A stretch of DNA of 63,532 nucleotides, the filler included, from Basidiobolus ranarum (Eukaryota), in assembly GCA_040143965.1 (NCBI GenBank). It is 26 parts of 26 records of this genome, joined end to end, with 100 filler letters (N's around TTAATTAATTAA, not from the genome) between each part and the next. Parts side by side here need not be neighbours in the genome. Positions count along the whole stretch, not along the records: positions 1 to 2,357 come from JASJQH010010307.1; 25 more parts are not named here. One strand, given 5' to 3'. Below the pieces are notes generated by a model. That model did not search any database, had not been told where the DNA came from, and saw only the letters and a program-made list of their open reading frames with translations. Shown here piece by piece: positions 1 through 62,923 of this stretch; position 1 is the stretch's first letter; every line of letters starts with the position of its first letter. Made by a program: the position numbers and the translations under genes.

Positions 1-825
1 GAGACTGAAAAAATTGATTAAAATCAAATCTAACTTGATGATTTTATGACGGTGAGTAAGCGGTCAATCCCAAATGGATTAAAATTGTGATGGTTTTCCT
101 ACAATAACAATCCTCAAATTTCTGCTAGGGGATTCTTTTCTCCTGAAGCTAAATGACTCCCATTTTGATTAGTGATGGTGCATCCTGACTTACCAAATTG
201 AATTTTAGCTCTTCTCAGGTAACCTTGTATACAGATATCAAATTCTTGCAATATCTGGAACATGTAGTATATCCTTAAAAGCATACACTTTGTCTTCAGA
301 AGCTTCAGTTAAATTGACTCTAATTGTTGCCATTCCAATACCTTCCAATGTGCAGTCATCTCCCATGAAAACCTTTACAATTGGTATTTCTTCATAATTC
401 ACCAACCAATGTTTTTCATCTATGAAATATTGGGAAGCTTGAGAGTCAAAGTACAATATCTGAGTATTCTTGTTGGTAGTCATAAATAGAGCAGATATGA
501 ACAAGTTATCTTCTGCTGTAACCACATTTCCAGATTTAGTATTTTTTTCTTCTTTGACAATTCTTTTAAGCAATCTTTGCTTATATGGCCAGTTTTTTAC
601 AGTAAGCACGTAATTTGTTACTTTTCTTCTTTAAGGGCTTTTGATCTTGATAGGAAGGTTTCCCACAGCCTATTAAAATATTTTTCTTCATTCTTTTGGT
701 TGGATCCCAATTAGCATAAATCTTCATCCAGAAGTCTGCTAAATACATAATTCAAGGTCAATTTTTCAGTTCTTTTTTGCTAGAGCCATTACTAGGCTCT
801 GAAACTTGTGTGGCAGGCTATTCAA

Positions 826-1106
826 TATTGAAATTATTAGGGAGGAATATTGATCTGGCCAGGATTTGAACCTGGGACCTCCTTCACTCTAGCAAGGTGC
901 TCTAACCACTGAGCTACTAGTTCTTGTATGCTATGCCTATATTGCTAGGGAACCTTGACCTAGTCTGTCAATGTATGATACTTTGGCATTTCAGCTATAC
1001 ACACAACTGATTGGCCTTAGACTTTGTGTTCAGATGCAGTCACCATACTCCATATTTTTGTCTTTGAGAATTACTGCTTGTACCACATGTCACCAGACTT
1101 TCAACA
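826..1106 (-). mobile_element. 281-bp solo LTR containing a tRNA-like sequence, inserted into Copia gag
   Basis: Termini T(A)TTGAAA...TTTCAACA; 5-bp TSD TTCAA at 821-825 and 1107-1111; removing it restores the gag frame VTVLN|SLPHKFQSLVMAL. Confidence 0.9.
851..923 (-). pseudogene. tRNA-like cloverleaf inside an LTR (AGA anticodon, short variable loop)
   Basis: GAACTAG TA GCTC AGTGGTTA GAGC A CCTTG CTAGAGT GAAGG AGGTC CCAGG TTCAAAT CCTGG CCAGATC A; perfect D and T stems, Pol III A and B boxes, acceptor stem 5/7 paired. Confidence 0.85.
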
Positions 1107-1950
1107 TTCAAGACTGTAACTTTGATATATTTATCAGTAGAAGGCACTCCAATACATTCAATTTCATCCACTAATATAGTGACTCTATCAATAAGTGATT
1201 TAACATGTTCTACTAGCTCCATCTTTAAGTTAAAGAATTGTCTTCTTAAATACATCTTTTTGGCTGCACAACTTGTTTGGTAAGTGTCTTCCAAGGCTTT
1301 CCATACCTTCTTGGCAGTTTTAGCTTGTGAATATAGAAATAGCAATTTGTCTTTAATAATAAGACATATTGTGTTAAAGGCACTTTGTTCCTTTTTTACC
1401 TGGAGTAAAACTTTGGTTTCAGATAGCTTTGCATTGATTTCTTCTCCTACAATAGTGGCCCAGAGTTTTTTTTTCTTGCAGCAGCATTTTGATTATAATT
1501 CTCCAGACTTGATGTTGATTCCATCCAATTTTTCAGAATAGGGAAAAGTTCCATAAATTTGAGAAGTAGACATTACAGAGAGTGCAAGCTTGGGCTCATA
1601 ACCTGTTAAAGTATTTGGGAGCCTGTTGGAATTGGCTAGGAGAATTAGAGGAATTGGTGGTTTTCACTTATTGATTTATTGAGTAGAAAGTTGACATTTA
1701 CAGTTTTGTCTGGATGTAGGCAAACTAACATGTAGAATGTGTTAAGGAAGGTCCCAGGAGCATGTATGCAAAGCTTGGGGCTTCTAACACAAGTCTGAAA
1801 AATTTATATATCTGAGAACTTCTAAGTTGGTAAGTATGTTCTAAGTAATTCTGATTTAGAATGATGGATAATATCTTAGTGAAATATATGATAACTAAGT
1901 ATTAAGCTATATATGACTATATAGGTGTTTAGACAATATTAATTTTGACA

Positions 1951-5361: not shown

Positions 5362-6813
5362 AATTCTCTTAGTATTAGAATTTGACATCATATCTGCTAT
5401 GCTATCCTTTCTTAGCAATCTTGTACTTATTTATCCAGGTTTCCTTATATGGAAGTTGTGTTCTTTAGAATGTTTCATGAAACTCAACCAGTCAGATAAG
5501 GAGTTTTCAAGCTATGCTATAAGCCCTGAACTTGGTACAAATGCTCCTGGCACCTCCCTAGCACACTCTCTACATTTGGTTGCTTACATCATGATAAAAC
5601 TGTAAGGTCAAATTTCTACTCAATTAGCAATCAGTGAAAGCCACCAATGCTTTTGGTTCTTCAAACCATTTCCAACACACTCTAAAAATACTTTGAAATT
5701 TAAAGCACTGAACAGAATATATTTGCTGCCTATACCACAATAGTAAAGCATTCAATGAGAGAATATCAAGAACTACTGCTTAAGCTCTACTTAAGTACAA
5801 TGTCAGATATCCAGCTAAAAAATGAAGTGAATTTAGTGTTGTTGCTAAATCCAAGTGGCTTAAAAGATGTGGGTTAGTTATGTGTCCCAGTTAATTTCAA
5901 TTCAAAACCTTAATGAGTGAATAATCAATATACAGCAACTATTTGCTTGCTCAACTAGTATGTGATTTCCTACCCTAATCATAATCATTCTTTTAGATAT
6001 TTGGTGACCCATTTGCTTGGCTCTTTCTGATTAATATTTCAATAGTTTGTAGTAGCAAAGCTCACTTCAACTTTGACTTGCGCTGTGTTTCAATGAATGC
6101 TGGTTTCTCATCTACTATCTGGTATGTTTCAATGAGAACTATTATTTTTTCTCATAAGCAACACATCCCAGTTAAAACTAATCATTCATTTACTATTTAG
6201 GATATTTCAACAAAATCTTGTTGCTCAACCAATGCCTATTGTGTCTTAATAGGTAACACAGCTTTATTTCAGTTTTCTGCAATCTGTACACCACAAAGTC
6301 TAGCTGTCTTGAAGACAATATCACTGTTGTAGCATGGCAAAAATTTCCTATTTTGAAGCCAAATATTTGCACAAATTTAATATGTTTATGTAATGTTCTA
6401 GCCTTTAATTGTTGTATGTTAGATAATTTTGGGATGTTGCATCAATTATGAAAGAGTTCTCTACCAATTGCTCCAATAATCTTGGTTTCAATACCTGTCT
6501 TACATTATTACTCCTCGGCTGTTAGCCTTGCATTATATATCACTGTTTCCTGCCCCACCACTGGCTTGCAACTACCCTTAGTATTCATCACTGTGACTTT
6601 ACATGCAAATCATAAGCCAAAATATAAATCAAAATATCTTCTAGTAGATAAGTCAATGACTAAAGAAAGGAGTATGAAATTAGTAATGATCATCAGAGAA
6701 ACTTAAACCAAACATGATGGATAAGGATTTTTTTATAAAAGAATGAACATATTTAGGTTTTCTCCACGGTATATTTGTTAAAAAAGCATATGTGTGTAGA
6801 TGTGGAAGTACAA

Positions 6814-21984: not shown

Positions 21985-22084
21985 NNNNNNNNNNNNNNNN
22001 NNNNNNNNNNNNNNNNNNNNNNNNNNNNTTAATTAATTAANNNNNNNNNNNNNNNNNNNNNNNNNNNNNNNNNNNNNNNNNNNN

Positions 22085-24435
22085 CTCAGCCTCGGATGGC
22101 TCAGACACGACTACAAAGGCAAGAGAATGCAAGAGTGAGCGGAAGAGCTCGATCGCTTCAGGGAATTTGCCAGCCGAGGTAGCTTTGTATGCATCACGCA
22201 ATAGAGTGAGAAGATAATCCATATTGTAGATAACGACTGGGTGGACTTTGGAAAGCTGCGTCTCTTCTCCATTGCGACGAACAGGAACAGAAACGGATGG
22301 CACAGATGGGTTGCACGAGAGAACAGTGCGACTAGCTTGATAAATAGTCAAGAACTGTGATTTCAGTGGGGCAAAGTTGATGGCTCCGATTTGGGTGTGC
22401 AACAATTGCATTGCACTATCAAAAGATCCAGCAGCAATATGATCTGCTACCATTGGAGAGTTTTTACACCATAGTTCAAATTCACTAACTCCCGAAGATG
22501 GCATTACAAATTCAGCTGGGACACCTCCATTTAATAAATCAGCCCCCAAGTCAGCATCAAGTTTCAAATCGGCATCAAGATCCCAGCCAGATACTTCAAT
22601 AGTCTCATCATATTCCCCAATATGCAAATGCTCAGATGGTCCTGCCCCGTCAATATCTCCCCAACCTGCGTCAGTCTCATTGGCTTGAACGTCAGCGTCC
22701 ATGTTATCTGCATTGGCGATGTTTGCGAATGCATTTTCGAATGGACTCTTAGAGATACCGAGAACAGGCCAGTTGGATTCGTTTCTCTTGGAAACTGGTG
22801 CGGCAGGTTGAAGCAGGTTGCCTGGAGGGAGTGTTTCGGTGATATCTTCAGGAGATAATCCAGCACTGGTAAGGATATTATAAGCCTGCTCCTCAAGACC
22901 GTGGGATTTGGCAGTGAGATACGCGAGAGGGTCTATATTGAAAGTAGTTTATGCGACTGAAAGAAACCGATTGTTGTATGATTTGAACTTACATTGGTCA
23001 ACTTCTACGAGCATTTGGATTCTCTCCTGGACATCTCCAAGGTATAACGCGTTATGGAAACGAGACATCTGATCGTTACGATGCTCGGCAATCTTCATCA
23101 TTTTCGCCAATTTCTCAGTATTACCCGTAGCCAAATAAAGGAACGATAGACGATCGTAGTTCTTAACGCGCTGATAAGCCATCTCTACTACCTGTGATGC
23201 CCTCACGAGTCAGTATTTCCAATATTCTAAAGATAAAGAAACTAAGCAAAAGCAATTACCTGTTGATTACCATGTTTTAATGCTTCAGAGCTCAATCTAT
23301 TCCAACACTCTTCTTTATCTATGACCCTCGCCGTTTCAAGGGCAACATCAAGATTACCGCATTCTAGAGCCAATTCGAAGCGTGTACGTTCATCTTTGAC
23401 GAAGTGCAGGGCAATCTATAAAAAAATTTGCATTCAGAAGCAGTCGGGAATAACGATGAGAAGAGCACATCTAACCTCAGGATAACCAATTTTTTGAAGA
23501 TAAGCGATAACCGACTGTCCGACTAGATTGGAATGTTTGATTACATGAAGAACTTCGTCATAGTTCTTGTTGATGAGGGCGAGTTTAAATCGATATTCCG
23601 TAGGATCAATGGTGGTAACACGAGCTTTAGCATCACGATCCAAGGAGTAAATGTTTTTTCCTTTAGCCTTTGTTAAGTACAAAGGATGTTCAATGCTTCG
23701 AACAATTCCATTATCACTATGTAAGGTAAGTGGGTAAGGCTAAATGGTCGGTGTAAAGCTTCAAAAAGAATTCTAAGCTTACCCTTGTGGCAATAAATAT
23801 TTGATATGGTTCAAAGTGGTGTAAAGGAAGACACCTGTATCATCGAAGACACCACTCTTGATACGGATTGTCTCATGAATTTGGCATTTTTGGGCTAAAT
23901 CCTTATTGGCCAAGGTAATGGCTAATTGAGAAAGGTATTAGAGCCGAAAATAAGGATAGACAATGAATGATAAAGGTCTTACTATGTTTGTTCAATAAAG
24001 CAACAGTAGTCATATCGTTGGACCAGAACACATATTTCACAGCTTCGACATTGAGCTCAGCAATTGTCTGGCGTTGTTGAACGTCATAGAGAATTATGCT
24101 GGTTGGAGTGGACAATAGAATATTGCCACCAGGTGCATGGAAAATATCGACCACGGTAGTAGGAGGGGTGATGGTTTTAGTGGTGGCGTTTGAAAGATCT
24201 CTAATAGTTATTGTCTTTAAACATGTTAATGATGGTAGCATATTATGTGTCGATTACAAACGATGTAACTCTTACCTGTGTTGATTTGTCTAGGACGGCA
24301 AATCGGTTACGAGCAATAAAAATGGCTGATGATCCATTACCACGCTTGGGCTCGACCTTCATAGGCTCTCCCCCCGTACTATCTCTTGGTAGGCTAAACA
24401 ATTCATAGACGCTGTTGTCATTGTTGAGCGTTCGC
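22085..24435 (-). CDS. COP1: Coatomer subunit alpha (COPI), internal multi-exon fragment
   Basis: [106 protein letters not shown] introns. Confidence 0.96.
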
Positions 24436-26232: not shown

Positions 26233-26985
26233 ATTGTTGCTTATAAGATCCTATTGAGAGTTATAGAACCTAGGAATGGTTACTTACAGATTACACTGGA
26301 TTCTCTGGTATCAGGATGGATTAGGCAGCACAATTTGACTAGGTCTGACAGAACAAATCTGCTAAATAATAGTGTCACTATTTAGTGGATCATTTGGAAT
26401 GCATTGGAGTACCTACTGCTGATCATGTTATTGGAGTTACAGTCCTAATTAGACAGTGACAGAGGTTTCAGAGCCTGGTAATGGCCTTAGAATCACAAAC
26501 CATCAATTGGACCTAAAATCATGTATTTGGAAGACTTCTAGTTGAAAACTTACACAAATTGGTTTCCAACAAAAAGAGTTAAGATAATACTTTAATAGGC
26601 TATGGGTACCTTTGTATATAGAGCAACAGTGCATTAAGAAGAAAAGTAATACATTCTTTTATTACTACTAAAGAAGTGGCTATTCAGCTAGGATGGTTTC
26701 AGGAGAATTGGAAAAGAAGAAAAATGCACTAAATCTCTCAATGGAGTTAAAATAGAAAATTCCTTGTTCATATCTGCCTTATATATGACTACTAACTGCA
26801 ATTCTTGGATATGGTATATTGATGCTGGAGCCATGCAATATTTCACAAATGTAAAGTAATGATAAGTCAGGATGCACCATCACTGNNNNNNNNNNNNNNN
26901 NNNNNNNNNNNNNNNNNNNNNNNNNNNNNTTAATTAATTAANNNNNNNNNNNNNNNNNNNNNNNNNNNNNNNNNNNNNNNNNNNN

Positions 26986-29435: not shown

Positions 29436-31385
29436 AAGGAAAGTCTACGAAGTCGAAAGACTGTTGACAAGTGACAAAGGGTATGGTGATAACAAACAGC
29501 GGGTATGTGAAAGACTGATAGAGAGTTTACGAAGTGCTAATGACCCCTAACAAATGATGAAGAGTAGGGTGCCAAAAACGACGGGTATGGGAAACACTAA
29601 AAGGAGAGGCTTCAGAGTGGTAAAGACTGCCTGGAAACGATGAAAGTTATGATAAAGACATGGTGCCAAGGAATGAGCAGTATGTGAAACACTGAAAAGA
29701 AATTTATGAAGTGCTAATGGCCACTGACAAATGATGACGAGTATAGTGCCACAAACGATGGTAATGGGAAACACTTAAAGGAAAGCAAATAAAGTGGTAA
29801 AGAAGTGCTAAAGAGTACTGAAAACGATGAAGGGTATGGTGATAACAAACAACTGGTATGGAAAACACTTAAAAGAGAGTCTAGGCAGTGCTGAAGGCTA
29901 CTGACAAGCGATGAAGGGTATGGTGTCAAGAAATGACAAGTATGGATAACACTTAAAGCCGAGTCTACGAGCAGCTAAAGACCACTGATAATTGCCAAAG
30001 AGAATGGTGCCAAGAAACATCAGGTATGTAGATAAAGACTACTGACAGATGACAAAGCATATGTTACCAAGAAACCACTGGTATGGGAAACACTTAAACA
30101 AAAGTTTATACAGTGCTAACGACCACTGACAAATGATGAAGGGTATGGTGAAGAGGAATGAGCGGGATGTGAAACATCTGAAGAACAGTCTACGAAGAGC
30201 TAAAGACCACTGACAAATGACAAAAGGTTTGTTGACAATAAACAATGAGTATGAAAAACACTTAAAAATGACTTTATGTAATGCTAAAAACCACCGATAA
30301 GTGACAAAGAGTATGGTGACAACAAACGAAGGGTATGGGAAACACTTAAAGAAGATTCTACGAAGTGTAAAGACTGCTGACAAGTGACAAAGGGTATGGT
30401 GAAAACCAACGGCAGGTGATGGAAACGCTTGTGAAAGAGTTTACGAGCCTTAAGGACTGCTGACAAATGACAAAGCGTACGGTTATGACAAACGACGGGT
30501 ATGAGCAATACTTTAAGAAAAGTCTACAAAGAGCTAAATTATAATGACAAATGATGAAGGGTATGGTGATAGCAAATATCGGGTACAGGAAACACTGATA
30601 GCGAAGTCTACTAAGACCTAAAGCCTGCTGACAAAAGACAAAGGGTATGGTGGTAACAAACGCCCGGTATGGGAAAGGCTTAAAGGAGAGCTTATAAAGT
30701 GCTAGAGACTATGGGAAACACTGATAGCAAAGTCTACGAAAAGGTATACACTGCTGATATGTGACAAACTGTATGGTCATACAAAACGTTGGGTTTGGGA
30801 GGACACTAAAAGGATAATGAGTTTACGAAGTGGTATAGAATCGCTAAAGACTACTGACAAATGACAAAGGGTACGGTGATGACCAACCACCGGTGTGGGA
30901 AAAACTTAAAGGAGAGTGAACAAAGTGCAAAAAACTACTGACAAGTGATAATGAGCATAGAGCCAGGAATAACGGGTATGGGAACACTTAAAGGAGAGTT
31001 AACCTAATGCCGGAGGCTACGGGAAAATATAACGAGCAGTATGGGAAACACTTACAAGAGAGTTTGCGAAGTGCGAAAGACTACTGAGACATGACGAAAG
31101 GTATGGTCATAACAAACAAGCGGTATGGGAAACATTTACAGCACAGTCAAGGCAGTGCTAAATACTATGACAATCGATGGAGGGTATGGTACCAAGAAAT
31201 GACGGGTATGGAGAACATTTAAAGCACATTTTATTAAGTGCTAAATACAACTGACATGTGGCAAAGGGTACGGTGTCAAGAAACAGCAGGTATAGGAAAC
31301 AATTAAAGTAGAGTTAGTTTATTGAGTGTAAATGACGAAGAATATAGTGATGGGAAACACTCAAGGGATAGTCTACAAAGCGCTA
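29436..31385. repeat. Diverged 84-bp tandem satellite (over 20 units; another partial unit near 31710-31783)
   Basis: Approximate consensus GACAAATGACAAAGGGTATGGTGATAACAAACGACGGGTATGGGAAACACTTAAAGGAGAGTCTACGAAGTGCTAAAGACCACT; unit starts at 30044, 30128, 30212, 30296. Confidence 0.92.
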
Positions 31386-37264: not shown

Positions 37265-37900
37265 CAACAGCTGAACACAAACCTCAAGGTAGACAGTATG
37301 CTCCATTGCGTTCCACCATGCAACAGAGGTCATGGCAGCCAGTCAAATGAGATGAAGCTTTTACCATGGTTGAAGAGGCAAGAACAACCAAATGCAAACC
37401 TCAAGGTATATGACTTGCTCCAACATATACTGGAATGTGACCATGGCAATGGCCAGTCAAAAGAGATGAAGCTTCTACCATGGTTGAAGAGGCAATAACC
37501 ACCAAACACAAACCACAAGGTATATGGTTCACTCCAACATGTACTGCCATGCCACTGCAGCTATGGCCAGTCAAAAAAGATGAAGCATCTACCTTGGTTG
37601 TAGAGGCAAGAACTGCCAAACACAAACCACAAGGTAGATGACTTGCTCCAACATGTACTGCCATGCAACCACAGTCATGGCCAGTCAAAAGAGATGAAGA
37701 TTCCACCGTGGTTGAAGAAGCAATAACTGTCAAGCACAAACCTCAAGGTAGACAACTTGCTCCAACATGTTCCACCATGCAACAGAGGTCATGGCAGCCA
37801 GTCAAAAGAGATGAAGTCTCTACTGTAGTCAAAGAAACAATAACTGTCAAGCACAAACCTCAAGTGAGACAATCTAGGCCAACAGGTAGAGCTGCACACC
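37265..37900 (+). repeat. Frame-preserving 114/117-bp tandem repeat (5-6 units) in a decayed ORF (~36778-38016)
   Basis: ACC(T/A)CAAG motif at 37281, 37398, 37512, 37626, 37740, 37857; peptide unit ~PVKRDEASTVVEEAITVKHKPQGRQLAPTCTAMQPQSW; in-frame TGA where other units have Arg or Gln. Confidence 0.85.
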
Positions 37901-38532
37901 AGCAGCAATGGCTGGTTGACCAATTAAGTGAAGGCTCCACATCTGAAGAAGAGACTGTAGATACAAACAAATCTCAAACTAGACCAGATGAGCCAACTCA
38001 TACCACGGTGCATTGACCTCAAGCCACAACTCATGCTGGCCAAGGTAGAGGAGCTTCAGCAGGACCGAACCAACCAATTCAGCACAGAGGTTCAAGCAAA
38101 GTTCCTTCTGTGGAAATATCAAGGAGACAACAAAAGTAACAGAAGCAAATCAGCATATACTACTTCAAACCTAGGCAACTGCTGAATACTTTTGTTAATA
38201 CTTACAATATCCTATCTTGACTGAATAGCACATCATGCAAAATTGATATGGATCGCAGTTAAATATAGCATAAATTGCTTTAGTTAGATCACAATTGCTT
38301 ATGTATTTATGAAACACTGATAGCGTGAAATTGTCATATATCAAAAAAACAAAGATAGCCTATTAATACAAGCAATTTCACTATAATGAAATGAAAAATG
38401 TCTGTCAATAAAAAGCTTGCGCAGCCATATTGGCTTGATATGGCTCAATCCATTCACCTTTTCACTCAACTAGAAGCTACATAATTGAATGAACAATTTG
38501 CTGATCTAAAATGATGAATCAAGCAATCCTGT

Positions 38533-39122
38533 GTTGAAATTAGGTATGTAGCAACTCATTATTTAGTAGTTTGTGTATTCATATTCTGATTATTTAGTAC
38601 TCAATTCTGACATTCAAAATCGTGTGTTTATTGCTCTAATTGATAGAAGTATCAATTAGATCACTTTTACCAATTTTCACTATTTTCTCAAAACTTCTCC
38701 AAATCATCTCAAATTTTCACCCATGCTTGAAAGGCATGTTTGTTATGATCCAAGCACATTCAATAGTCTTATTTCATAGTAAACTTTAAATTGGACATAT
38801 TTAATTCAATAAAACTCAAGTGTCTAATTCACAAATCCAAATCTAGTTCAAAACACTTCCAAATCCTCTAAACACTTTTGTCAGGTCATGAGCCCCAAGC
38901 TAGCTATTAAAATAATGTCAACTAGTACTATTACCAACATTTTTGCATCCACAGAGAAGTTTGATGGTGAAGACTTTCACCTTTGGAAGTTCAAGATGCA
39001 AATGGTGCTACAAGACAAGGACCTTTGGGGATTTGTTACAGGAGAAGAAATAGAGTCAAAGGGGCCACCAGAAGCTATCCTTGCCTTTCACAAGAAGCAG
39101 AGGAAAGCACTCTCTACACTTT
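38533..39122 (+). mobile_element. Copia family C 5' LTR, PBS (38884-38895) and gag start
   Basis: TGTTGAAAT...TTTTGTCA then GGTCATGAGCCC; EKFDGEDFHLWKFKMQMVLQDKDLWGFVTG. Confidence 0.9.
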
Positions 39123-43915: not shown

Positions 43916-44263
43916 GTTCATATTTGGCTTTGTTGAACTTTATTGTCTTTATCATAATTATTATCTCTATCTTTATACACCTAACTATTTCATATATCAC
44001 ATATTAGTTNNNNNNNNNNNNNNNNNNNNNNNNNNNNNNNNNNNNNNNNNNNNTTAATTAATTAANNNNNNNNNNNNNNNNNNNNNNNNNNNNNNNNNNN
44101 NNNNNNNNNCCGAAATCACTTGTTAACAGTCCATCAGCCTACAAGTAAGGTCACTTGACATGATTATCTCGGTGATAAATCTAATATTGAACATCTTTTG
44201 GCTATTTAACTTTAACATCAGGTAAAGGCTCTCTAATCAAATTTTCTTCGACTTTCACTTAAG

Positions 44264-45744
44264 ATGCTTTCCCTCGACCAAGAGAACACCCTATTTGACC
44301 GCCCTGGAAACTTAGACACAAACGAGGACTATGTTGATTTCACTATTGGTGCTCCCGGCTCAGACTTGCTTCGGAATGTCACCAAGCTTGCACTTGAGGC
44401 CTCTCAATCAGCATTGTCCGCACCGGACGCTTATAACTTGCTTCAGTACGGTGCAGCGAAGGGTTTGGGTACCTTTAGAAAAGGCTTAGCTAATTGGCTG
44501 GAGCATGAATATCATGATACTTCTATCGACCCGTAAGTTCTTTATTGAGTGCTTAACTCTATACTTTATCGTAACCTTTTTGAAGTTCTCGCTTAACAGT
44601 AACCTCAGGCGCTACTCAGTCTTTCACTAATATAGTCACCTTGTTTACGTGCCCTGATACTGTGTTTCTTATCGAGGACCCCACATATTTTCTGGCGTTA
44701 GACCTTGTACGTGAGCAACGGGCAGACTCTAAAATCTTACCTGTACCCACGGATGAGTCAGGTATTATGACTAAAAATTTAGAGGCATTACTTGAGAAAT
44801 ATACAACCAAGGATAAAAACATATGGCCGAATCGTTTCTCCTTCATGCTCTATCTCGTGCCTACCCATAACAATCCTACTGGTCGCTCCTTATCACACGA
44901 AAGACGTATTGAGCTGGTTAAACTCGCAGCGAAATATGATATGTTGGTTGTGTGCGATGATGTATATGATATACTAAGATATGAGGACCATGCCAATACT
45001 CCAAAACGATTGGTGGCTTACGATTACGAGTTCAATAAGGAGGCTTCAGGTTTTGTGATTTCTAATGGAACTTTTTCAAAGTTGTTTGGTCCCGGGGTAA
45101 ATGGTTTTTATTACGAGATCCAATAGGATATCAATAGTTCGTTAACTTCCTATCTAGATTCGATTAGGTTGGGTAGAAGCAAAAGAAAGCTTAATCAATA
45201 CACTAAGTCAAAGGTAATCTTCCAAGAAACATTCTTTTGAGTAGAACAAGACTTCTAAATCTGTCTACTAGTGGGCTAAACAACAGCGGCGGAAGCCCAA
45301 ATCAGCTCGCTTCAGGTATGTCCTACCATTCGTATCCATATTCCCTCTGAATGCTAGTTAACTTTTATTTCAGGTATCATGACGGATTTGCTTGTCAGCG
45401 GGAAACTTTCGAAGTTTGTTGACGATCTTCGAACCACTTACGCAAACCGTATGCACGCTTTGATGAAAGTCCTTAAGAGCCAGCTACCTCCAACTTGTGA
45501 AGTTCTACATCCCAAGGGTGGCTATTTCGTATGGATCATTCTTCCAGAACACATCAACACTCGTGATCTCTTGGAACGTTGTCGTAAGGAGACCCATGTC
45601 AATTTCTCACCTGGAGATCGATTTTCTCTAGCTGGTAATACCAATCATTGTTTACGATTATGCTTTGCTTATAACAGTGAAGACAATATTGTTAGTGGCG
45701 CTGAAAGGTTGTGCCGATTCTTGACGACCTATTTATCCAGCTAA
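44264..45744 (+). CDS. PLP-dependent class I/II aminotransferase (2-aminoadipate/aromatic transaminase, YER152C-like), ~5 exons
   Basis: LQYG, SGATQS, EDPTYFLA, YLVPTHNNPTG, DDVYD, GTFSKLFGPG|IRLGW (PLP lysine), GGYFVWI, LRLCFA. Confidence 0.92.
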
Positions 45745-46220
45745 TTTAGCCTCAATGTATGGTCATTCCTGTGTTGTCAATATCATAATCCATTTGGTTG
45801 TGCCTTGTAACATTGTACTACTATTTTCCTCAACATCATTACGAAAATACATTGTCTCATTTCTCTTCTATTCGATATTTTAATCGTATCACTTGAAGTA
45901 TTACAATGAGAGTCGTAATAAAACTTCTCAAGAGCTGATCTTGTTACACTTCATGTGATACTTTTTCTTTTGTAATTAATTCGACCATTATTGAAGTGTT
46001 CATATTGCCACTTATTTAGGTGGCTGTGTAAAAATGATGTATTGCTTATTGTTCTCGCAAGTAGTGAGTATGATTGACAGAATTTTTGAGTGATGGAAAG
46101 AGTTTCAATGGACTCTAATATGACTCATAAGATCACTTTGTATTGTAGCTGGAAATACAGAATGAAGCAGGAAGACTATGCTCACAATATCTATGAGGAA
46201 GGAGTAACATGGCTTGGAGA

Positions 46221-46440
46221 TTGTTAAAGTATTTGGGAGCCTGTTGGAAGTGGTTTGGAGAATTGGAGAAGTAGGTGGTATTCACCTATTGATTTATTGA
46301 GTTAAAAGTTGACATTTATAGTTTTGTCAAGAAGTAAACAAACAAAAATGTAGAATGTGTTAAGGAAGGTCCCAGGAACATGTGTGCCAAGTTTGGGACT
46401 TCTAGTGCAAGTGTGAAAAAATCTATATACCAGAGAAGTG
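46221..46440 (-). mobile_element. Copia family A LTR fragment
   Basis: TGTTAAAGTATTTGGGAGCC..., matching 1604 onward. Confidence 0.85.
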
Positions 46441-46552
46441 TTAATGTTTTTTNNNNNNNNNNNNNNNNNNNNNNNNNNNNNNNNNNNNNNNNNNNNTTAA
46501 TTAATTAANNNNNNNNNNNNNNNNNNNNNNNNNNNNNNNNNNNNNNNNNNNN

Positions 46553-49834: not shown

Positions 49835-51335
49835 TTGTATAGATGTGGCATAAGTTTAAACAGCTTTGTATATTGGTGCACAACACCAGCACCCACAAAT
49901 GGCTGTTTGTGTTGCCAACCATATAGGCAACCTTCACATAGGTCCAGATCTGGCGGAGTTACAAAGTTTAGTCCAAAAAATCTTGTTTTTGAATAAATTC
50001 CTCATTTATTGAGTTCCTAGATGACCCAATCTCCTATGCCAGATTTTCCAATCTATCTCTCCAGATGTGGCACTAGTGACTTGTTCATACATTGGCATAA
50101 TATCATGAAGCTTATACAAGTTATTTTACTTAACTCCAGAAGCTATGTAATTCTCTTTTTGAACCCTGCTTGTACAACCATTTGGATCAAAATTGAAGCT
50201 GTATCCCTCAGATGTAGCTTTAGACAGTAATAACAGCTTTTTTGCTATCCTAAGCACATATAGCACATTTTCAGTATCAAATACATGTCCCCAGAGATGC
50301 CCCCAAGATCCACTTAAACTTCTCCTACTCACAGAGCTTCTAGTGGCTGGTCATCTCCCTTATAAACCTTCTTATTTATGTTGGTTTTGAGGATCTTGAA
50401 CCTGTTTTTCTGATTAGATAAATGTTGAGAGGCTTCAGAATCAATATATCACAGCCTGCATTCTGGTTCAGAGGTCACTGATAGGGCAGAGATGAATAAA
50501 ACTTCCTCTTTGGTTATAACCTGATGTGCTTGTTCTGACTTCTCATTTTTGTTGTAATTTCTTGATTTGCAATCTTTCAACTGGGGTCCTGGTTTGTTAC
50601 AAACATGGCATAAACCTGGTTTCCTTCTTCTGTGACCTTTGTATCTGCAAAAGCTCCACATCCTCAGATTCTTTTTCCAAATTCTTACTTTTGAGGTGTT
50701 GGTCCATTAGTCTTCCCACCACAAACTCCAAAGATAACTTGTCACATCTTGCTTCCAATGCTGTGACCAAGTTTGAATACTGTTCTGGTAGACTACTTAG
50801 AAGAGTCATAATGACATCTTCTTACCATAAAGTTGCATCAATATTTTCCAGTTGTTTTGCCAAAGATTTCAAACTTGCAATATCAGTAACCATTCTTTCA
50901 GACTATTCTATCTTTGTATTGATGAACTTTTGTCTGAGAGAGAGTCTATAAGCAAGACTCTCTGCTTCATAACACTCTTGCAATATAGTCCAAGCTTGAT
51001 GGGAAGTCTTGGCATATAGAATATTCACAAGTTGTGAATCCTTCAAACTTTGACAAATGATATTAAAGGCCCTCTGGTCTCTTTTCTTATAAGCTTCCAA
51101 TAAAGAAGGGTCAGAAGGTTCCTTCACATCTCCAAAGTCTACATTCCAAAGTTCCCTGTCTTCCAGCATGATTTGCATTGTAAACTTCCCGCAATTGTAA
51201 TTTTCTCCATCAAGCTTTTCAACACTTGAGTTACCAAAAGTGGTTGTAGTGGTTTCTGTCATGATGTAAAGGTTAGAACACAGGGCTCATAACCTATTGG
51301 GAAAATATGGGCTGTTTGGAGGAACTATAGAAAAG
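49835..51335 (-). mobile_element. Copia family B: LTR end, PBS (51283-51294), gag-protease pseudogene
   Basis: EKLDGENY..MLEDRELW, LLSSLPEQYSNLVTALE, CHVCNKPGPQLKDC, YIDSEASQH. Confidence 0.9.
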
Positions 51336-51960: not shown

Positions 51961-53776
51961 CTAAAATAAATCGGAAGGTTTGATGGGAATGAGGGAGTGT
52001 GCACAGAGGGGACCAACAATAATGATTACAAAGAGGATGAAAATACAGAAAAGGAGGATGCCGTAAAGAATGGAACGAATCTTGCGTTGCTTCAATTCCT
52101 TGGGACTATAAATTGGTGGACGAATGTGGTCATGATTACGATACCAGAATAGCATAGTGGAGTGAATCTTATCAGAGTATGGGACCAGACAGAAGATTGC
52201 CAAGACGAATAGAATGCAATGACAGATAATGAAATCCGTTGCAAATAGTGACATCTCGGTGATTTTACAGAAGAATTCTCGCATTGGTTGTGTGAATGCC
52301 ATATAGCCAAGTCCTGCACTATACCACTTTCCAGTCCACCATGCGATGTTAGCTTCATCTTGTCCATATTCACGACTGCATGCTAGCAGAATTATGGAGA
52401 ATATGGCACGTTGAATGTAACTAGCGGCAATCATAGCCAAAGTAGCATTGGCCAGATTCCAATCTTCAATGAACCAAGCCACAATAAAGAAGATGATCAA
52501 ATTAATCACAGCCCAGCCATGTGCAATACCCGCAATGACGGTACCAAATCCTTTGCAGCATGCACCAAACATTGGACCCAAGAACAACGATACGAAGAAG
52601 AAGGCCATCAAGAAACCAGCATTTAAAGCTATGGGCCCACAGGCAATGATCGCGATATGAATGGCGTTATCAACCAGTCCTTTCGTGTGTATACTGTTGA
52701 AGGCAAAGATGCATATCATAACGGCTGCCATGATAACGGGTATTACCACTTCAGAGATCAAGAGACCGATGGTAGACGCACGAGGAACATAGCTGGATAG
52801 CTTGCTTTTAGACTCTTCAAGTCCCTTACGTTTAGAACCAGTGATCTTCACACGAGTAATACGGCGGAAATTGATCCATGACTTCTCCTCTGAGGTGGTG
52901 TTACCAATAGAGAGCCAACGAAGAAATTCCCGATAATCCAGAAGAAAGTCACGAAGTTTAAACTGATGTGGATTAAACAAGAATGGTGATATAGTTAGAG
53001 CCAGAGCCGTGAAGTAGAAGTAGATATAATCTGAGAGATATGCATTAATGCAAACGTAAATAAGCATAAGGAGAATACGACTTCCAAGATAAATGCTGGA
53101 GCTGGCAAAACGCGAATAAAGTTCAGGGAATGAAACTCGGTTGATAGCGAAACCACGACCTGTAGCAATATAACGAGCGCCACCAAAACTCATATTCTGA
53201 ATTAGACTGTTGGCATAGATCTGAGTGAGAAACACTTCGAACAACGGAGACATTGAAAGAAGCTGCTTTGCAAGACGTGTGAAACTGCGGCTAATTCCCT
53301 GTTCCGTCAGTATCTGAAGGAATAGGGGTATGAACGCAATACCAAACACAATCAGAATAGAGAGAACGGTACGGTGGATCCAAGAATTAACGGGCCAAAC
53401 GTCGTAGCATCCTTCGGGGAGAAGAGGTGCATTCGGAGCTGGATGTGCAACATAATGACACACAGTTAGGACTTTTGTAAGAGAAGCCACACAGATGGCA
53501 GTAATCATGAATAACTGAACAGAAAGCATAATCATAATGTTGTTAATGTGAAAGCCGGGGTGAGCATAGAAGAAGGTAAGGACGCGATCCAAAGGAAGCT
53601 GGGTTCCAATGTAGTATTGTTCTCTTGACAGCATCTGTTCACCCATACCAGTACCAATTTTGGTAACAAAGTTGAGAACACTACAGAAACCAAGATCACG
53701 ACCCTTGCCACATTGGAAATATTCGGTATGCTTAATACGACCACCACGCTCGAATGCATTCATACCAGCGTAAATA
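51961..53776 (-). CDS. FKS1: 1,3-beta-glucan synthase catalytic subunit (GT48), C-terminal ~600 aa
   Basis: IYAGMNA..RGGRIKHTEYFQCGKGRDLGF..KIGTGMGEQMLSREQY, FFYAHPGFHINN, GGARYIATGRGF, PFLFNPHQF, many TM helices. Confidence 0.97.
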
Positions 53777-53876
53777 NNNNNNNNNNNNNNNNNNNNNNNN
53801 NNNNNNNNNNNNNNNNNNNNTTAATTAATTAANNNNNNNNNNNNNNNNNNNNNNNNNNNNNNNNNNNNNNNNNNNN

Positions 53877-54895
53877 GTTGTTTCATGTATACAATGGTTG
53901 GAACACATCTGGACATTGCTGTGGCAGTGGGTACTGTCAGCCAATATCTCAAAAATCCTGGATCTGAGCACAAAACTGCAGTAAAACAAATATTCAGGTA
54001 TCTGAGAGGAACTGTAGATCTAGTTCTGGAATACTCTGCCACTCATCATGCACAAAATATTTAAGGCTACAGTGATGCAGACTGGGGAAGAAACCTTGAT
54101 GATAGAAGATCAACAACTGGATACACTTTTCTCTATGGTAATGGAGCCATAACTTGGAATAGTATGAAGCAACCAACCATGGAACTTTCCACTACAGAAG
54201 CAGAGTATATGGCTGCCTCTGCTACAACACAAGAAGCTATGTGGTTAAGGAAGTTATTTAAATACTGAGGATACATGTAAAAACGTGCTATTATATATTT
54301 GAAGGTAATCCAAGTTGTATTTCATTAGCTAAAAACCCTACATTTCATGCTAGAACAAAACATATAGATATTAGGCATCATTTTGTTAGAGAAGCAATAG
54401 AGAATGATATAATTGAAGTTGTCTATTGCCCTACTGAAGAAGTGATAGCTGATATCTTAACCAAACCTTTAGCTTAAGCACAATTTGAATTATTAAGATA
54501 TAAGTTAGGTTTAAGAGAGATACAAAATAATCAGTTGAGTGGGAATGTTGAAATGGGGTAAATAGCAACTCATTATTTGGTAGTTAGTTTATTCATATTC
54601 TGATTATTTAGTACTCAATTCTGTCATTCAAAAACGTGTGTTTATTGCTCTAATTGATAGAAATATCAATTAGATCACTTTCACCAATTTTCACTATTTT
54701 CTCAAAATTTCTCCAAATCGCCTCAAATTTTCACCCATGCCTAACAGGCATGTTTGTTATGATCTAAGCAGGTCTAATAGTCCTATTTTGTAGCAAACTA
54801 TAAATAGGACATATTCAATTCAATAAAACTTAAGTGTCTAACTCACAAATCCAAATCTTGTCCAAAATACTTCCAAATCCCTTAAACACTTTTAT
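53877..54895 (+). mobile_element. Copia family C: RT end, RNase H, PPT and 3' LTR (~54547-54895)
   Basis: GYSDADW, STTEAEY, FHARTKHIDIRHHFVRE, ADILTKPL; PPT GTTGAGTGGGAA followed by TGTTGAAAT. Confidence 0.92.
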
Positions 54896-55139
54896 TAGTT
54901 CCCCTCTCTCAATAGTGTACAGTCATAATACTTTGATACTGTCCAACATATCTAGACCTAACTCATCTATGCTTGGACATAGCTCTCTGGCACCATTAGT
55001 TGATGTGGAGGTTTTTGCAGGCACAATGTTCTATCTTGCTTTAAATTCTGTGAGATCAATGCTGTTTACTCTCCCAAGCATATGCATTACAACTATACAA
55101 ATCCAACACTGAACTACATGATTTTATCATCAATAGCCT

Positions 55140-55800
55140 GGTTAGATTTCAACTTGCTCATCAAAATCAATTGACCAAATAGTCAGTCTAACATCAAATT
55201 TGGGATTAGCTATAAGCCTAAGATTATATTGATACAAGGGATTGGCTGGAGCCAGAACTTCCCATTAGGCACTATGTATTTACTACTCAACAACATACCA
55301 ATACTACCTAGCTAGTTGTATAGTGGAAAATTCACTTTGAATGACCCATAGGTTTGATTCATTTAGGAACATGTTTGAAAATGACTAGAAACCATGATGC
55401 TGTACCAAGACTCCCATCAAGAGACTGGACCTATACCAGTTTTCAATGAATTCCCTGCTGTATCTGTCTTAATAATTTGAGATCATAGGCCCTTACTATA
55501 TATTCTGTGAGTTCCCCAATGGAGCATGCTAATAGTGAAATGATGTTCTGTGTGAAATCATTGGTTTTACCATGAGTAATACAAGTAACAATGTTTCAGC
55601 TAAATTAATGATGGGTTGAGGAGATTCCAGACTGTACTAACCATCCAACACTGGGCCCACTTCAATGTGCTCATGGGTATTTATATTGCTTGAGTATAAT
55701 AGCAGCAACAAAACCCAATCAATGAGTACAGAGAAAGTACCTCTATAATTTGGACTTTTTTAATGGGATAATCAGTGTGGGCAATGACATTTCTGCTTAT
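55140..55800 (+). mobile_element. Highly diverged CACTA-like transposase remnant
   Basis: Patchy similarity to 2660-3620 with deletions. Confidence 0.6.
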
Positions 55801-56114
55801 TGCATGATAGTAAGAGTGGAATGTTAACATTTGTAGTTTTATCAAGATGTGAACAACCTAACATGAAGAATATGCTAAAAAAGGTCCTTGGAACATATAT
55901 GCAAAGTTTGAGGCTTCTTGTCATAATTCCAATCTTGGCATACTCATCCACTGCAAATAGAACTCTTCTATTATTAGATTATGACATCAATTCTGCTCTG
56001 CCATCCCTTCTTGGCAATCTTGTATGAGTTCATCCAGGTAACCTTATATGGAAGTCAAGTTCTTTGGCACATTCCATGAAACCTAACCAATTATGTCATC
56101 CCATACACTAACCG

Positions 56115-56216
56115 GGGCTCATAACCTGTTGAAATTATTTAGGGAGAAATATTGGTCTGGCCAGGATTTGAACCTGGGGCCTCCTTCACTCTAGCAAGGT
56201 GCTCTAACCACTGAGC
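56115..56216 (-). mobile_element. Second tRNA-bearing LTR (3' end) followed by a half-tRNA-iMet PBS
   Basis: Near-identical to 826-914; LTR end TTTCAACA at 56127, PBS GGTTATGAGCCC at 56115-56126, tRNA-like part 56153-56216 cut by the contig edge. Confidence 0.88.
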
Positions 56217-56316: not shown

Positions 56317-58415
56317 ACTATTGGTTGTGCTTAGATCATAACAAACATGCTTGTCAAGCATGGGTGAAGATTTGAGGTGATTTGGAGAAGTTTTGAGAAA
56401 ATAGTGAAAAGTGGTAAAAGTGATCTAATTGATATTTCTATCAATCAGAGCATTAAACACACATTTTTTAATGACAGAATTGAGTGCTAAATAATCAGAA
56501 TGTGAATAAGCCAAATACTAAATAATGAGTTGCTATTTATCAAATTTCAACAGTTTTGTGCTCAGATCCTGGGTTTTTGAGAGACAGGCTTACAGTTCCC
56601 ACTGCCACAGCAAAGTCGGGACTTGTTTCAACCATTGTTTACATTAAACTACCCACCATGGATTGATCAGGGAACTCCTGTCTTTGATTTCAGTCATTTT
56701 GAGTCAAATTGGATGGAATTTTGTTTAATTTCACATTGGGAACCATCAGCTTTGATACAGGCTTGCTATTCTTCATATTGAAGTATTTTAGGATGTCTAG
56801 GATGTATCTAGAATGAACCAGCATAATTTTCTATTTGGGTTTATCTCTCTGGATTAGGATTCCAAGATAACCCATACCAGTCATCTGAAACTTGTTTGAT
56901 AAGCTACTTTTTTCTCATTAAGTGCTTCTAGGTCATTTGTGGCTATAATCAAGTCATCCACATTTAGTGCCAAGATAAAGATTGTATTACTGGTTGTTTT
57001 GACATAAATACTGTGATCTGCTATGCACTTTTAGAATACTACTAATTCCAAATGGGAATCTATCTTGTTGTTTCATGCCCTGTGTGATTGCTTGAGTTCA
57101 TATAGCATTTTTTGCAGTTCACAGACCTTATTAGGTTGTTTTGGGTCAACAAATCCATCTGGTTGTTCCATATAGATCTCTTCTTCTAGATTTCCAGGAA
57201 GAAAGGCTGTTTTTACATCCATTTGATGTAAATCCAGGTTATGGGTGACTGAGAGTGCCAGGATTGACCTAATGGAGCTAAGTGTAGATACTGCAGTAAA
57301 AGCTTCATTATAATCAACTCCTGGTGTCTGGAAATAACCTTTTATAACTAAACTTGCTTTGTACCTTTCTGTGGTTCCATCAGCTTGGCTCTTGACTTTG
57401 TAGACCCATGTGCAACCTACTGGCTTTCTCCCTGATGGTAGTGGACTTAAAATCTATGTTTTATGTTCCTGGAGTGAAGAAAACTCCTCAGACATTGATT
57501 TTCCTGTAATTTTGATTTTGGACATTTTAGAGCTTGATCTAGAGTGTGTGGCCTGTAATGGAATGCTGCATAAGCATATATATCTTCATTGGCAGTGTTC
57601 CACCAGTTTCCTGGCTTATTTCTCCTTCTGGATGATCTTTAGTCCTGAATCAGCCTCTGATTTAGTTCACATGGGCCCACATAGATCAGAATAAATCAAA
57701 ATTTGGAGTGGCTCTAATCTCTCCGAAGTTTAAGAACAGCTGTCTGTGATGATGTCCATACGCAACCTTCATACAGATCCAATTTGGTGATATTTGCAAT
57801 TTCTAAGCCTGAAACCTGCTGATTTTGGATCATTTGGGTTATTTTTTGCTCCCCATTGTAGCCTAATCTTCTATGCCACTTTGGACAGCTTATTTCACTG
57901 GCTTTGGCCAAGTGTGCATGCTCAGAATGCAATTTGCTAATTTCCAGCTTGTTTAAATTTTCAGTCTTGATCCAAGTAGTTAATTTGGTATTTTTCTGAT
58001 CTGTGATAGTGCATCCAGCCTTGCTGAACATTAAATTTAGGCCTCAAGTTATTGATTTGCTAACTGAGAGTAGATTTATGGCTATATTTGGTACAAAGAG
58101 TACATCATCCACTTTTGCAGATGGTGGAGCTAAATTTTGGCCTAAATTAAGCACAACTGTGCCCTTACAAACTGCATCTAGTGCATAGTCATCACCTGAG
58201 TAAACTTTCCTTGTTTGGATTGGTTTTAAGCTGGAAAACCAACCTTTCTTGCTTGACATCTGTTAGGATGCTCCTGGATCAATTTACCATGTTTGTGAGT
58301 CTTCTATAGTAGTTACTGATGGGGCAGACACAAATAGAGGATCCCTATCAGTGCTATTTTGATTTTCTTGTTACAATTTTTGCTTTGGGGCAAAAATCCT
58401 TTTTCTATAATCATT
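56317..58415 (-). mobile_element. Copia family C LTR fragment (56317-56551) plus protease/pre-integrase/RT pseudogene with internal deletion
   Basis: KWHRRLGY, YSDLCGPM, WVYKVK..YKASLV, LHQMDVKTAFL, ALNVDDL. Confidence 0.88.
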
Positions 58416-61194: not shown

Positions 61195-62923
61195 TTTTGC
61201 TCAGATCCTGAAGCTATATAATTCCCTCTATAATCCATGATTGTACAGACATTTTGATCAAAATTAAAGCTATATCCCACAGATGTTGCTTTACTCACTG
61301 ATAACAAATATTTTGCTATCCCATGCACAAATAGCACATTTTTTAGTGTCAAATACATGTCCCCAAAGATGCCCCCAAGATGCACTTCAACTTCTCCCCC
61401 TCCTAGAGCTTCTAGTGACTGGCCTCTTCCATATAAACCTTCTTGTTTATGTCAGTTTTGAGTATCTTAAACCAGTTGTTTGATTAGAGAAGTGTTGAGA
61501 GGCTCCAGAATCAATATACCACATCCTACAGTCTTGTTCAGAGGTCACTGATAGAGCAGAAATGAAAAAAACTTTCTCTTTGGCTGAAACCTGATTTGCT
61601 TGTTCTGACTTCTCATTTCTGTTGTAATATCTTGATTTGCAATCTTTTAACTGGTGTCCTGGTTTCCTTCTTCTGTAACCTTTGTACTTGCCAAAGCTAC
61701 ATTTTCCAGCTCCTAAAAGAGCCACTTCCTCAGATTCTTTTTCCAAATTCTTACTTCTGAGGAGCTAATCCATTAGCCTTGCCACCTCAAACTCCATAGA
61801 CAAATTGTCAGATCTTGCTTCCAAAGCTGTGACTAAGTTTGAACACTCTTCTGGTAGACTGCTTAGAACAGTCATAATGACTTCTTTTTACTGTAAAGTT
61901 GCACCAATATTTTCCAGTTGTTTTGCCAAAGATCTCACATTTACAATATGAGTAGCCATGCTTTCGGACTTTTCCATCTTTATATTGAAGAATTCTTGTC
62001 AGAGAAAGAGTCTATTACCAAGACTCTTTGCTTCATAATACTCTTCCCATATAGTCCAAGCTTGATGGGAAGTCTTTACATATTGAGTATTCACAAGTTG
62101 TGAATCCTTTAAACTTTGACAAATGACATCAAAGGCCTTCTTGTCTCTTTTCTTATAAGTTTCCAACAAAGATGCCTCAGAAGGTTCCTTTTCATCTCCA
62201 GAGACTACACCCAAAAGCTCCTTGTCTTCCTGCATGATCTTCACATTGAACCTCCACAAATTGTAATTTTCTCCATTGAGCTTTTTGACACTTGAGTTAA
62301 TCAAAGTGGTAGTAGTGGTTTCTGTCATGCTGTAAAGGTTAGAACATGGGGCTCATAAGCTATTGGCAAAATATGGGCTGTTTGGAAGAACTTTAGAAAA
62401 GTGGAGTTGTGAATAGCTTTGTGAGATAATTATTTATTTTCCAGAAATAAAGCATTTATACATTTTGGTGGAAATACAGAATACTAATGCTGGGGTTGTG
62501 TTCAGAACATCTGCAGGAGTAAAATGGGCTATTTTTGGGGCAAATTGGAAGAGTTTGAAATTTCCAATATGGAATTGCTAATTCTCACATCATTCGTATA
62601 TATATATAATTTATGTTTGAATTTGCAGTTAAGTGATATTTGACTAAGTATTGGACTTGTTCACTGTGATAGTGCTGGATTTTGCTAAATATATCATATT
62701 GGATAAAGTATTCTAAAATTCATGCAGCACAATTTGGCACTATTGAGCACCTTCTGGCATGATCAATTTCAATCACACTTACTTTAATATATTGATCCAA
62801 GGTCCAATAAATCCTGGCACAATGGTACATGTCCAACATTAACTAACCTATACGTGATATATCAAATAGTTAGGTGTATAAAGATGGAGATGACAAATAG
62901 GATAAATCCAATAAACTTTAACA
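61195..62923 (-). mobile_element. Copia family B: 5' LTR (with MITE 62653-62834), PBS, gag-protease pseudogene
   Basis: KLNGENYNLWRFNVKIMQEDKEL, KPGHQLKDC, MWYIDSGASQHF; PBS GCTTATGAGCCC. Confidence 0.9.

Follow-up and report, generated by a model that had tools for sequence, protein, structure and literature searches.

How does a tRNA-like sequence come to lie inside the gag gene of a Copia retrotransposon? The question is raised by a 281-bp element near the start of a 63,532-base stretch of DNA from Basidiobolus ranarum (hereafter the window). We consider that this element, at 826-1106, is probably the solo long terminal repeat (LTR) of a Helenus-type, non-autonomous, Copia-dependent element (TRIMp3), with a putative internal promoter module for RNA polymerase III (Pol III). 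We refer to it as the tRNA-LTR. The window chains 26 separate contigs, in pieces of about 2.35 kb that are ordered by falling length (about 1 base per step). The pieces are joined by linkers of 44 N, TTAATTAATTAA and 44 N, which appear as 50 runs of 44 N, in pairs. Neighboring pieces are not to be taken as genome neighbors, and features on the two sides of a linker (e.g., 56216 and 56317) are not contiguous. All of the DNA evidence is drawn from the approximately 61 kb of Basidiobolus sequence in the window, which is AT-rich (36% G+C) and dense in Copia elements. The tRNA-LTR contig is piece 1 (positions 1-2357), and its features are as follows, with TSD for target site duplication and PBS for primer-binding site.

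1..820, minus strand: host Copia family A, C-terminal part of gag and protease region (from translations; degenerate, with stops in all three frames)
821..825: left copy of the TSD, TTCAA (read from the sequence)
826..1106, sense strand minus: solo LTR, 281 bp (orientation from a second copy, copy 2, in which a PBS adjoins the corresponding end)
851..923, minus strand: tRNA-like module, 73 nt, at LTR nt 184-256 in sense (from ARAGORN, Rfam and stem counts)
862..872, minus strand: box B-like motif GGTTCAAATCC, which contains GGTTC
906..916, minus strand: box A-like motif TAGCTCAGTGG, at tRNA positions 8-18 (TAGCT...TGG, which fits the Helenus pattern TRGCY...YGG)
1107..1111: right copy of the TSD, TTCAA (read from the sequence)
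1112..1573, minus strand: N-terminal part of the host Copia family A gag (ATG at 1573, one in-frame stop)
1592..1603, minus strand: GGTTATGAGCCC, the host Copia A PBS; the PBS that adjoins copy 2 of the tRNA-LTR has the same sequence
1604..1950, minus strand: 5′ LTR of the host Copia A, without a tRNA-like part (no Rfam tRNA match at E ≤10)

On the plus strand, 826-1106 starts with TATTGAAA and ends with TTTCAACA. Read in sense, the LTR runs from 5′ TGTTGAAA to TTTCAATA 3′ and has TG...CA-type ends, of which the final CA is mutated to TA (TTTCAA(C>T)A). The flanking sequence matches Pol_BBD (Pol beta-barrel domain) at 238-630 (minus strand, E 1.2e-10) and Retrotran_gag_2 at 1112-1492 (minus strand, E 6.6e-20) in Pfam. 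In a diverged paralogous gag at 26370-26520 (reverse strand), the conserved blocks are 20 bases apart. The spacing in the gag of piece 1 is likewise 20 bases if the LTR and one TTCAA copy are left out, and the length of the empty site agrees with a TTCAA TSD. An element of 281 bp with a perfect TTCAA duplication inside a Copia gag, as proposed in the initial annotation, is thus borne out by the sequence itself, by the Pfam matches on both flanks and by the paralogous empty site. The element is inserted into the Copia gag with a 5-bp duplication.

The tRNA-like module is the single tRNA called by ARAGORN in the whole window (851-923, minus strand, anticodon AGA). The Rfam tRNA model (RF00005; gathering score 29, weak matches reviewed up to E 10) matches the same 73 nt along all of its 71 positions (1-71), with 52.1 bits (E 2.6e-8). 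The D stem (4/4) and the T stem (5/5) pair perfectly, with 5/7 pairs in the acceptor stem and 4/5 in the anticodon stem; the variable loop has 5 nt (AGGTC). The stems that hold boxes A and B are therefore perfect while the acceptor and anticodon stems are decayed, as would be expected if it is the promoter that is retained. The minus-strand cloverleaf described earlier for this site, with its A and B boxes and perfect D and T stems, agrees with both searches and with the stem counts. Serine tRNAs have a long variable arm, and an AGA anticodon without such an arm cannot belong to a serine tRNA. The module combines this anticodon with a variable loop of 5 nt, as had already been remarked, and it is therefore not a working serine tRNA. 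The cloverleaf is also not the minimum-energy fold of the sequence (-13.5 vs. -19.9 kcal/mol, i.e., 6.4 above; shuffle z-score -0.40).

From the 3′ end of the module to the LTR end there are 25 nt here and 26 nt in copy 2. No run of four or more T occurs in this interval, as the initial annotation had it, nor does the LTR contain one elsewhere on its sense strand. The box B search motif GGTTCNANNCC occurs twice in the window, in the tRNA-LTR at 826-1106 and in copy 2 only. We do not use this count by itself as evidence, since two sites against 0.81 expected is not significant (at least two in 21/100 shuffles). We did not find a tRNA-like part in the other LTRs of the window (Rfam, E ≤10), and no 5S rRNA match was found in the window with Rfam, either at the gathering score or at E ≤10. 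On the opposite strand, 850-923 (plus) gives a weak Rfam match to the Plastid-ycf2 5′UTR (27.5 bits vs. a gathering score of 65.7, E 0.18), which almost certainly only reflects the tRNA-like fold. Exact patterns for the LTR-specific tRNA 3′ end plus tail, and for a stretch of the anticodon arm, had 0 matches each in JGI metagenome contigs.

That the 281-bp unit is an LTR follows from copy 2, which lies on another contig together with the features below.

56127..56216, minus strand: tRNA-LTR copy 2, of which 90 nt at the 3′ end are present, as the contig stops inside the D arm; tRNA-like part at 56152-56216
56115..56126, minus strand: PBS GGTTATGAGCCC, adjoining the copy 2 LTR end TTTCAACA without a gap
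54897..56114, minus strand: interior after the copy 2 PBS, about 1.2 kb, non-coding, a mosaic of other repeats
55961-56089: repeat X in the copy 2 interior, 129 nt, with a further copy at 5362-5490 (77.5% identical)
55814-55918: mid-LTR fragment of Copia A in the copy 2 interior

Copy 2 is 95.5% identical to the LTR at 826-1106 over 88 nt (blastn), and its tRNA-like part is matched by the Rfam tRNA model with 35.1 bits (E 0.0012). At its junction the minus strand reads TTTCAACA and then at once GGTTATGAGCCCCGG. Allowing at most one mismatch, GGTTATGAGCCC has 8 sites in the window against 0.18 expected, a number reached in 0/100 shuffles. The other 7 sites, including 1592-1603, sit at the LTR/gag junctions of 3 Copia families. 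With this enrichment and this placement, GGTTATGAGCCC is therefore a PBS, and because copy 2 ends exactly on it, the 281-bp unit is an LTR, in sense on the minus strand. Complementing the PBS gives GGGCTCATAACC, which contains a 7-nt loop with anticodon CAT (the window holds no initiator-Met tRNA gene for comparison). By its sequence, the PBS is of the predicted half-tRNA initiator-Met priming type, as in Drosophila copia and Ty5, the two cases cited in section 3.6 of the main text of Kojima (2024; PMC10886601). A half-tRNA PBS of Copia type, claimed earlier for this element, is thus real, but it is located at copy 2 (56115-56126, minus strand) and not at 826-1106.

The same junction bears on whether the unit is an LTR at all. 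It might instead be a miniature inverted-repeat transposable element (MITE) whose ends are 8-bp inverted repeats and whose TSD is 5 bp, or a genuine tRNA gene beside a transposon end. TGTTGAAA and TTTCAACA do form a perfect 8-bp inverted repeat in the copy 2 version, and a single 281-bp unit with a TSD resembles a MITE. Against this, copy 2 ends exactly on a Copia-type PBS, with the same junction as the autonomous families, and the tRNA part is carried along in two copies that lie in unrelated contexts. A class I structure with an AGA anticodon and 3 mismatched stem pairs speaks against a working tRNA. We regard this explanation as the least credible of those considered here.

On the sense strand of the interior that follows the copy 2 PBS, stop-free frames do not exceed 68 aa, and no gag similarity was found in these 1.2 kb (best tblastn E 0.59), against E from 1e-11 to 1e-23 for the five other gag copies that the same queries detect in the window. 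The interior is non-coding, but it is rearranged or nested, and it is a single case (n = 1). The segment at 56317-56552 was ruled out as a continuation of copy 2, since it is a family B LTR on another contig. Repeat X adjoins a mid family A-like LTR fragment in two contigs, in opposite relative orientation. At its end a purine-rich run precedes TGATGTCA, and this may be the junction between the polypurine tract (PPT) and the LTR of a further family.

The two copies also allow a nested insertion to be considered, in which an ordinary tRNA-derived short interspersed nuclear element (SINE) has recently entered one LTR lineage. Elements of the SINE2 class carry the tRNA head at the 5′ end and a 3′ tail that is A-rich or of the type found in long interspersed nuclear elements (LINEs), by which they are mobilized. 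Like the tRNA-LTR, they are non-coding retroelements with a tRNA-derived sequence holding boxes A and B as an actual or presumed Pol III promoter. Unlike them, the tRNA-LTR has its tRNA part at nt 184-256 of 281, TG...CA ends, a 5-bp TSD, an adjoining PBS and no tail. The initial annotation took copies without the tRNA part, or a tRNA part with a TSD and tail of its own, as the signs of an ordinary SINE. In both copies (2/2) the part is present at the same place from the LTR end. It is followed by no A-rich or simple-repeat tail and flanked by no convincing duplication, and the ARAGORN, Rfam and box B searches found no free-standing copy of it elsewhere in the window. The 6-mer TCCCTA does occur on either side of the tRNA part, 22-27 nt upstream and 7-12 nt downstream. 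We rejected this pair as the TSD of a nested SINE, as approximately 0.17 shared 6-mers are expected by chance between stretches of 40 and 25 nt. Insertion of a SINE into an LTR is proposed as the origin of such elements in the main text of Kojima (2024; PMC10886601). As a recent event in one LTR lineage, we consider it very improbable here.

The published group to which the tRNA-LTR is most readily compared is Helenus, and the reference made to it in the initial annotation is to a real group. In the main text of Kojima (2024; PMC10886601), Helenus elements are TRIMs (terminal-repeat retrotransposons in miniature) with a tRNA-derived sequence in the LTR, in which the box motifs TRGCY/YGG and GGTTC are conserved. 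According to the same text, fungal Helenus have 5-bp TSDs, which solo LTRs keep, and their pseudo-tRNAs are called as Thr-AGT, Ser-AGA, Ala-AGC and others, most of them non-functional in that isotype and anticodon disagree. Total lengths of 311-1263 bp and LTRs of up to 323 bp are given, from a screen that kept elements <1000 bp. In most fungal families the PBS is complementary to the initiator-Met tRNA's anticodon loop and is common to Copia. The tRNA-LTR resembles the fungal Helenus of that description (Pucciniales and some Agaricomycetes; e.g., LTR-1_PTrit and Helenus-9_PSt) in its tRNA-like LTR part with boxes A and B, in the 5-bp TSD at a solo LTR, in a pseudo-tRNA of the Ser-AGA kind, in an LTR length of 281 bp that falls within their range, and in a PBS that is shared with Copia and complementary to a CAT-containing anticodon loop. 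It differs from them in its host, Basidiobolus (Zoopagomycota), and in being known here from a solo LTR plus one 90-nt copy. It differs from LTR-1_PTrit as described there in that its terminal octamer TGTTGAAA is also common to resident Copia LTRs; the LTRs of LTR-1_PTrit and Copia-9_PGr are given in the text as not similar.

The features of Helenus found here are thus a tRNA-derived LTR part, a 5-bp TSD, an anticodon-loop PBS shared with Copia and a tRNA-like part that is not a functional tRNA. Of the TRIM structure, copy 2 shows the PBS and a non-coding interior, with no PPT and second tRNA-LTR within 1.2 kb (n = 2 copies). The gag-pol that follows the PBS in autonomous Ty1/Copia elements is absent from the sole PBS-bearing copy, which is rearranged (n = 1). 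The Helenus-like solo LTR with a tRNA-derived module put forward in the initial annotation is upheld structurally, by the module, the 5-bp TSD and the copy 2 PBS. The half-tRNA PBS had also been taken as the mark of a new lineage. This does not hold, as the PBS type is typical of fungal Helenus in the account of Kojima (2024; PMC10886601).

Cassandra of plants and Ajax of nemerteans are likewise non-autonomous elements with a small-RNA module and internal Pol III promoter in the LTR. Their module is derived from 5S rRNA whereas the one described here is derived from tRNA, in a window without a 5S match. Cassandra also has a conserved terminator inside the 5S part, which yields an 18-bp R region (main text of Kojima, 2024; PMC10886601), whereas the LTR of Basidiobolus contains no T-run terminator.

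A non-autonomous element would depend on enzymes encoded elsewhere, and the window holds candidates in the Copia families A, B and C.

1604-1950 and others: Copia family A LTR, 7 LTR copies; the piece at 44110-46452 carries a family A LTR
38532-38883 and 54546-54896: Copia family B LTRs, 3 copies
51283-51294 and 62349-62360, minus strand: Copia family C PBS sites

At least 3 autonomous Copia families with an initiator-tRNA anticodon-loop PBS coexist in the genome. Families A and C have exactly the PBS found at copy 2, and that of family B is one base off. The octamer TGTTGAAA is the exact 5′ end of 3/3 family B LTRs and of 4/7 family A LTRs; two more family A copies have 1 mismatch, and the host copy A1 has 2. 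The T-rich ...CA 3′ end is shared as well, and the 5-bp TSD of the tRNA-LTR is of the class expected of Copia integrases. Unlike the tRNA-LTR, the resident LTRs have no tRNA-like part, and gag follows the PBS closely (in families A and B the gag ATG lies within approximately 20 nt). The LTR bodies are also not detectably similar, as profiles built from 6 family A copies and 3 family B copies gave no nhmmer match to the tRNA-LTR body at E ≤100. Alignment of the last 62 nt was inconsistent among copies, with the real score reached by 9 (A1), 554 (A2), 588 (B1) and 110 (B2) of 2000 shuffles. On these tests we dropped both a clear homology of the LTR tails with families A and B and the idea that the U5 of these families is a decayed tRNA T arm, and we count only the octamer and the PBS as shared.

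Two minor points concern the resident families themselves. The family C LTR ends in ...CCAATA and has a TATAAAT box approximately 105 nt upstream of its end, with an initiator-tRNA anticodon-loop PBS. In family A, a mid-LTR stretch at 1766-1790 (minus strand), GAAGCCCCAAGCTTTGCA, resembles the family's own PBS and leader at 1581-1603 (minus strand), GAGCCCAAGCTTGCA, as judged by eye, and copying of the PBS region seems to have given rise to part of the family A LTR.

The shared termini and PBS are the parts recognized by integrase and reverse transcriptase, and they form the basis on which mobilization in trans by Copia may be proposed. Mobilization by the resident Copia machinery, which the initial annotation had suggested, would be the natural reading of a common PBS and terminal octamer, and we retain it as such. 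For Cassandra, evidence of a mobilization partner is described as missing, and for most Helenus families as indirect (main text of Kojima, 2024; PMC10886601). Termini and a PBS held in common with co-resident Copia elements would supply a concrete candidate.

If the tRNA-LTR is of Helenus type, its history and cycle might be as follows. A full element would have inserted in the gag and later been reduced to a solo LTR by recombination between its LTRs. For transcription, TFIIIC would bind boxes A and B, and TFIIIB and Pol III would start near the tRNA 5′ end, at nt 184 of the 5′ LTR, so that the tRNA-like part acts as a promoter and not as a decoder. With a start at nt 184, the transcribed R and U5 regions (R-U5) would come to approximately 98 nt. 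The transcript would cover the PBS, then a short interior and the PPT, and would continue into the 3′ LTR. The proteins (gag, reverse transcriptase and integrase) would be supplied in trans by Copia: the RNA would be packaged, reverse transcription would be primed by an initiator tRNA-Met fragment, and the integrase would insert the DNA with 5-bp duplications.

Several observations weigh against this account. The 1.2 kb downstream of copy 2 hold no second tRNA-LTR, and no full-length copy with an LTR, PBS, short interior, PPT and LTR is present among the 2 tRNA-LTR copies of the window. The first T6 after copy 2 comes 245 nt past the LTR end, before any downstream tRNA-LTR, and copy 2 would therefore not yield a transcript with terminal repeats. 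The lack of T4+ runs in the LTR is not unusual for sequence of the window: 321/2154 random windows of 281 nt and 2029/5000 shuffles are also without TTTT. It is compatible with read-through by Pol III and is not evidence for it. The small size and non-autonomy are drawn from one rearranged copy, and the claims made at the level of a family from 2 copies, one of them only 90 nt long. The Pol III step is read from sequence motifs, and in the main text of Kojima (2024; PMC10886601) Pol III transcription of Helenus is itself stated to be unvalidated. The assignment to Helenus was made by match to the published description.

Initiation by RNA polymerase II (Pol II) is also possible. The LTR has a TATA-like sequence, AATATAGG, 13-20 nt upstream of where the tRNA part starts and 110-117 nt from the LTR end, a geometry similar to that of families B and C, where TATAAAT lies approximately 90-105 nt from the LTR end. 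The main competing explanation is built on this: the tRNA-LTR would be an ordinary Pol II-driven Copia LTR, of an autonomous or a large non-autonomous element, whose R-U5 is derived from a tRNA or SINE that serves as passenger or leader. In its favor, the PBS is shared with families A, B (one base off) and C and the terminal octamer with resident LTRs, and no short two-LTR copy was seen in the window. It does not sit well with boxes A and B and their stems being intact while the other stems are decayed, with the lack of gag behind the only copy that has a PBS, or with an LTR body without similarity to the family A and B profiles. On balance we find a Pol II-driven LTR unlikely, and prefer the Helenus-type element.

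The kind of element was already described in 2024, and likely only the host group is new. Table 1 of Kojima (2024; PMC10886601) lists among fungi only Pucciniales and three Agaricomycetes as Helenus hosts. The main text makes no mention of Basidiobolus, Zoopagomycota or Mucoromycota, and Table S1 or Repbase might hold further hosts. Passages of some later works that cite it add no Helenus hosts, and a literature search on Basidiobolus retrotransposons found no such element in titles or abstracts. The tRNA-LTR thus probably adds a new host phylum for Helenus. If confirmed, the range of Helenus would extend from Basidiomycota to a zygomycete lineage, which bears on whether these elements are ancient in fungi or arose repeatedly.

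A more tentative and rather doubtful proposal is that this is the first Helenus/TRIMp3 lineage of an early-diverging fungus and arose independently of the rust families, by a tRNA module that replaced a Copia-type R-U5. In that case Pol III would initiate at the position used by Pol II in the autonomous relatives, and the termini used by integrase and the half-primer site would have been kept. Were this so, Pol III-driven parasites with Copia LTRs would arise repeatedly wherever Copia elements primed by the anticodon loop are abundant. There is also a practical consequence for annotation. LTRs of this kind inflate tRNA gene predictions (standard tools call this one tRNA-Ser(AGA)), and annotation of Basidiobolus genomes should mask them.

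The rest of the window holds a few features apart from the retroelements.

22037-22948, minus strand: fragment of the coatomer alpha C-terminus
44584-45126, plus strand: 180-aa fragment of a class I/II aminotransferase, 96% identical to a Basidiobolus ranarum protein
51961-53820, minus strand: fragment of a 1,3-beta-glucan synthase paralog (Pfam E 8.7e-157)
29800-31320 and 37338-37793: two tandem repeat arrays

The glucan synthase fragment is 78% identical to a Basidiobolus meristosporus protein, and the next non-paralogous fungi reach ≤58%. The units of the first tandem array are 84 bp long, with approximately 13 or more copies at 60-75% identity, and those of the second 114 bp, with 3-4 copies at 80-83%.

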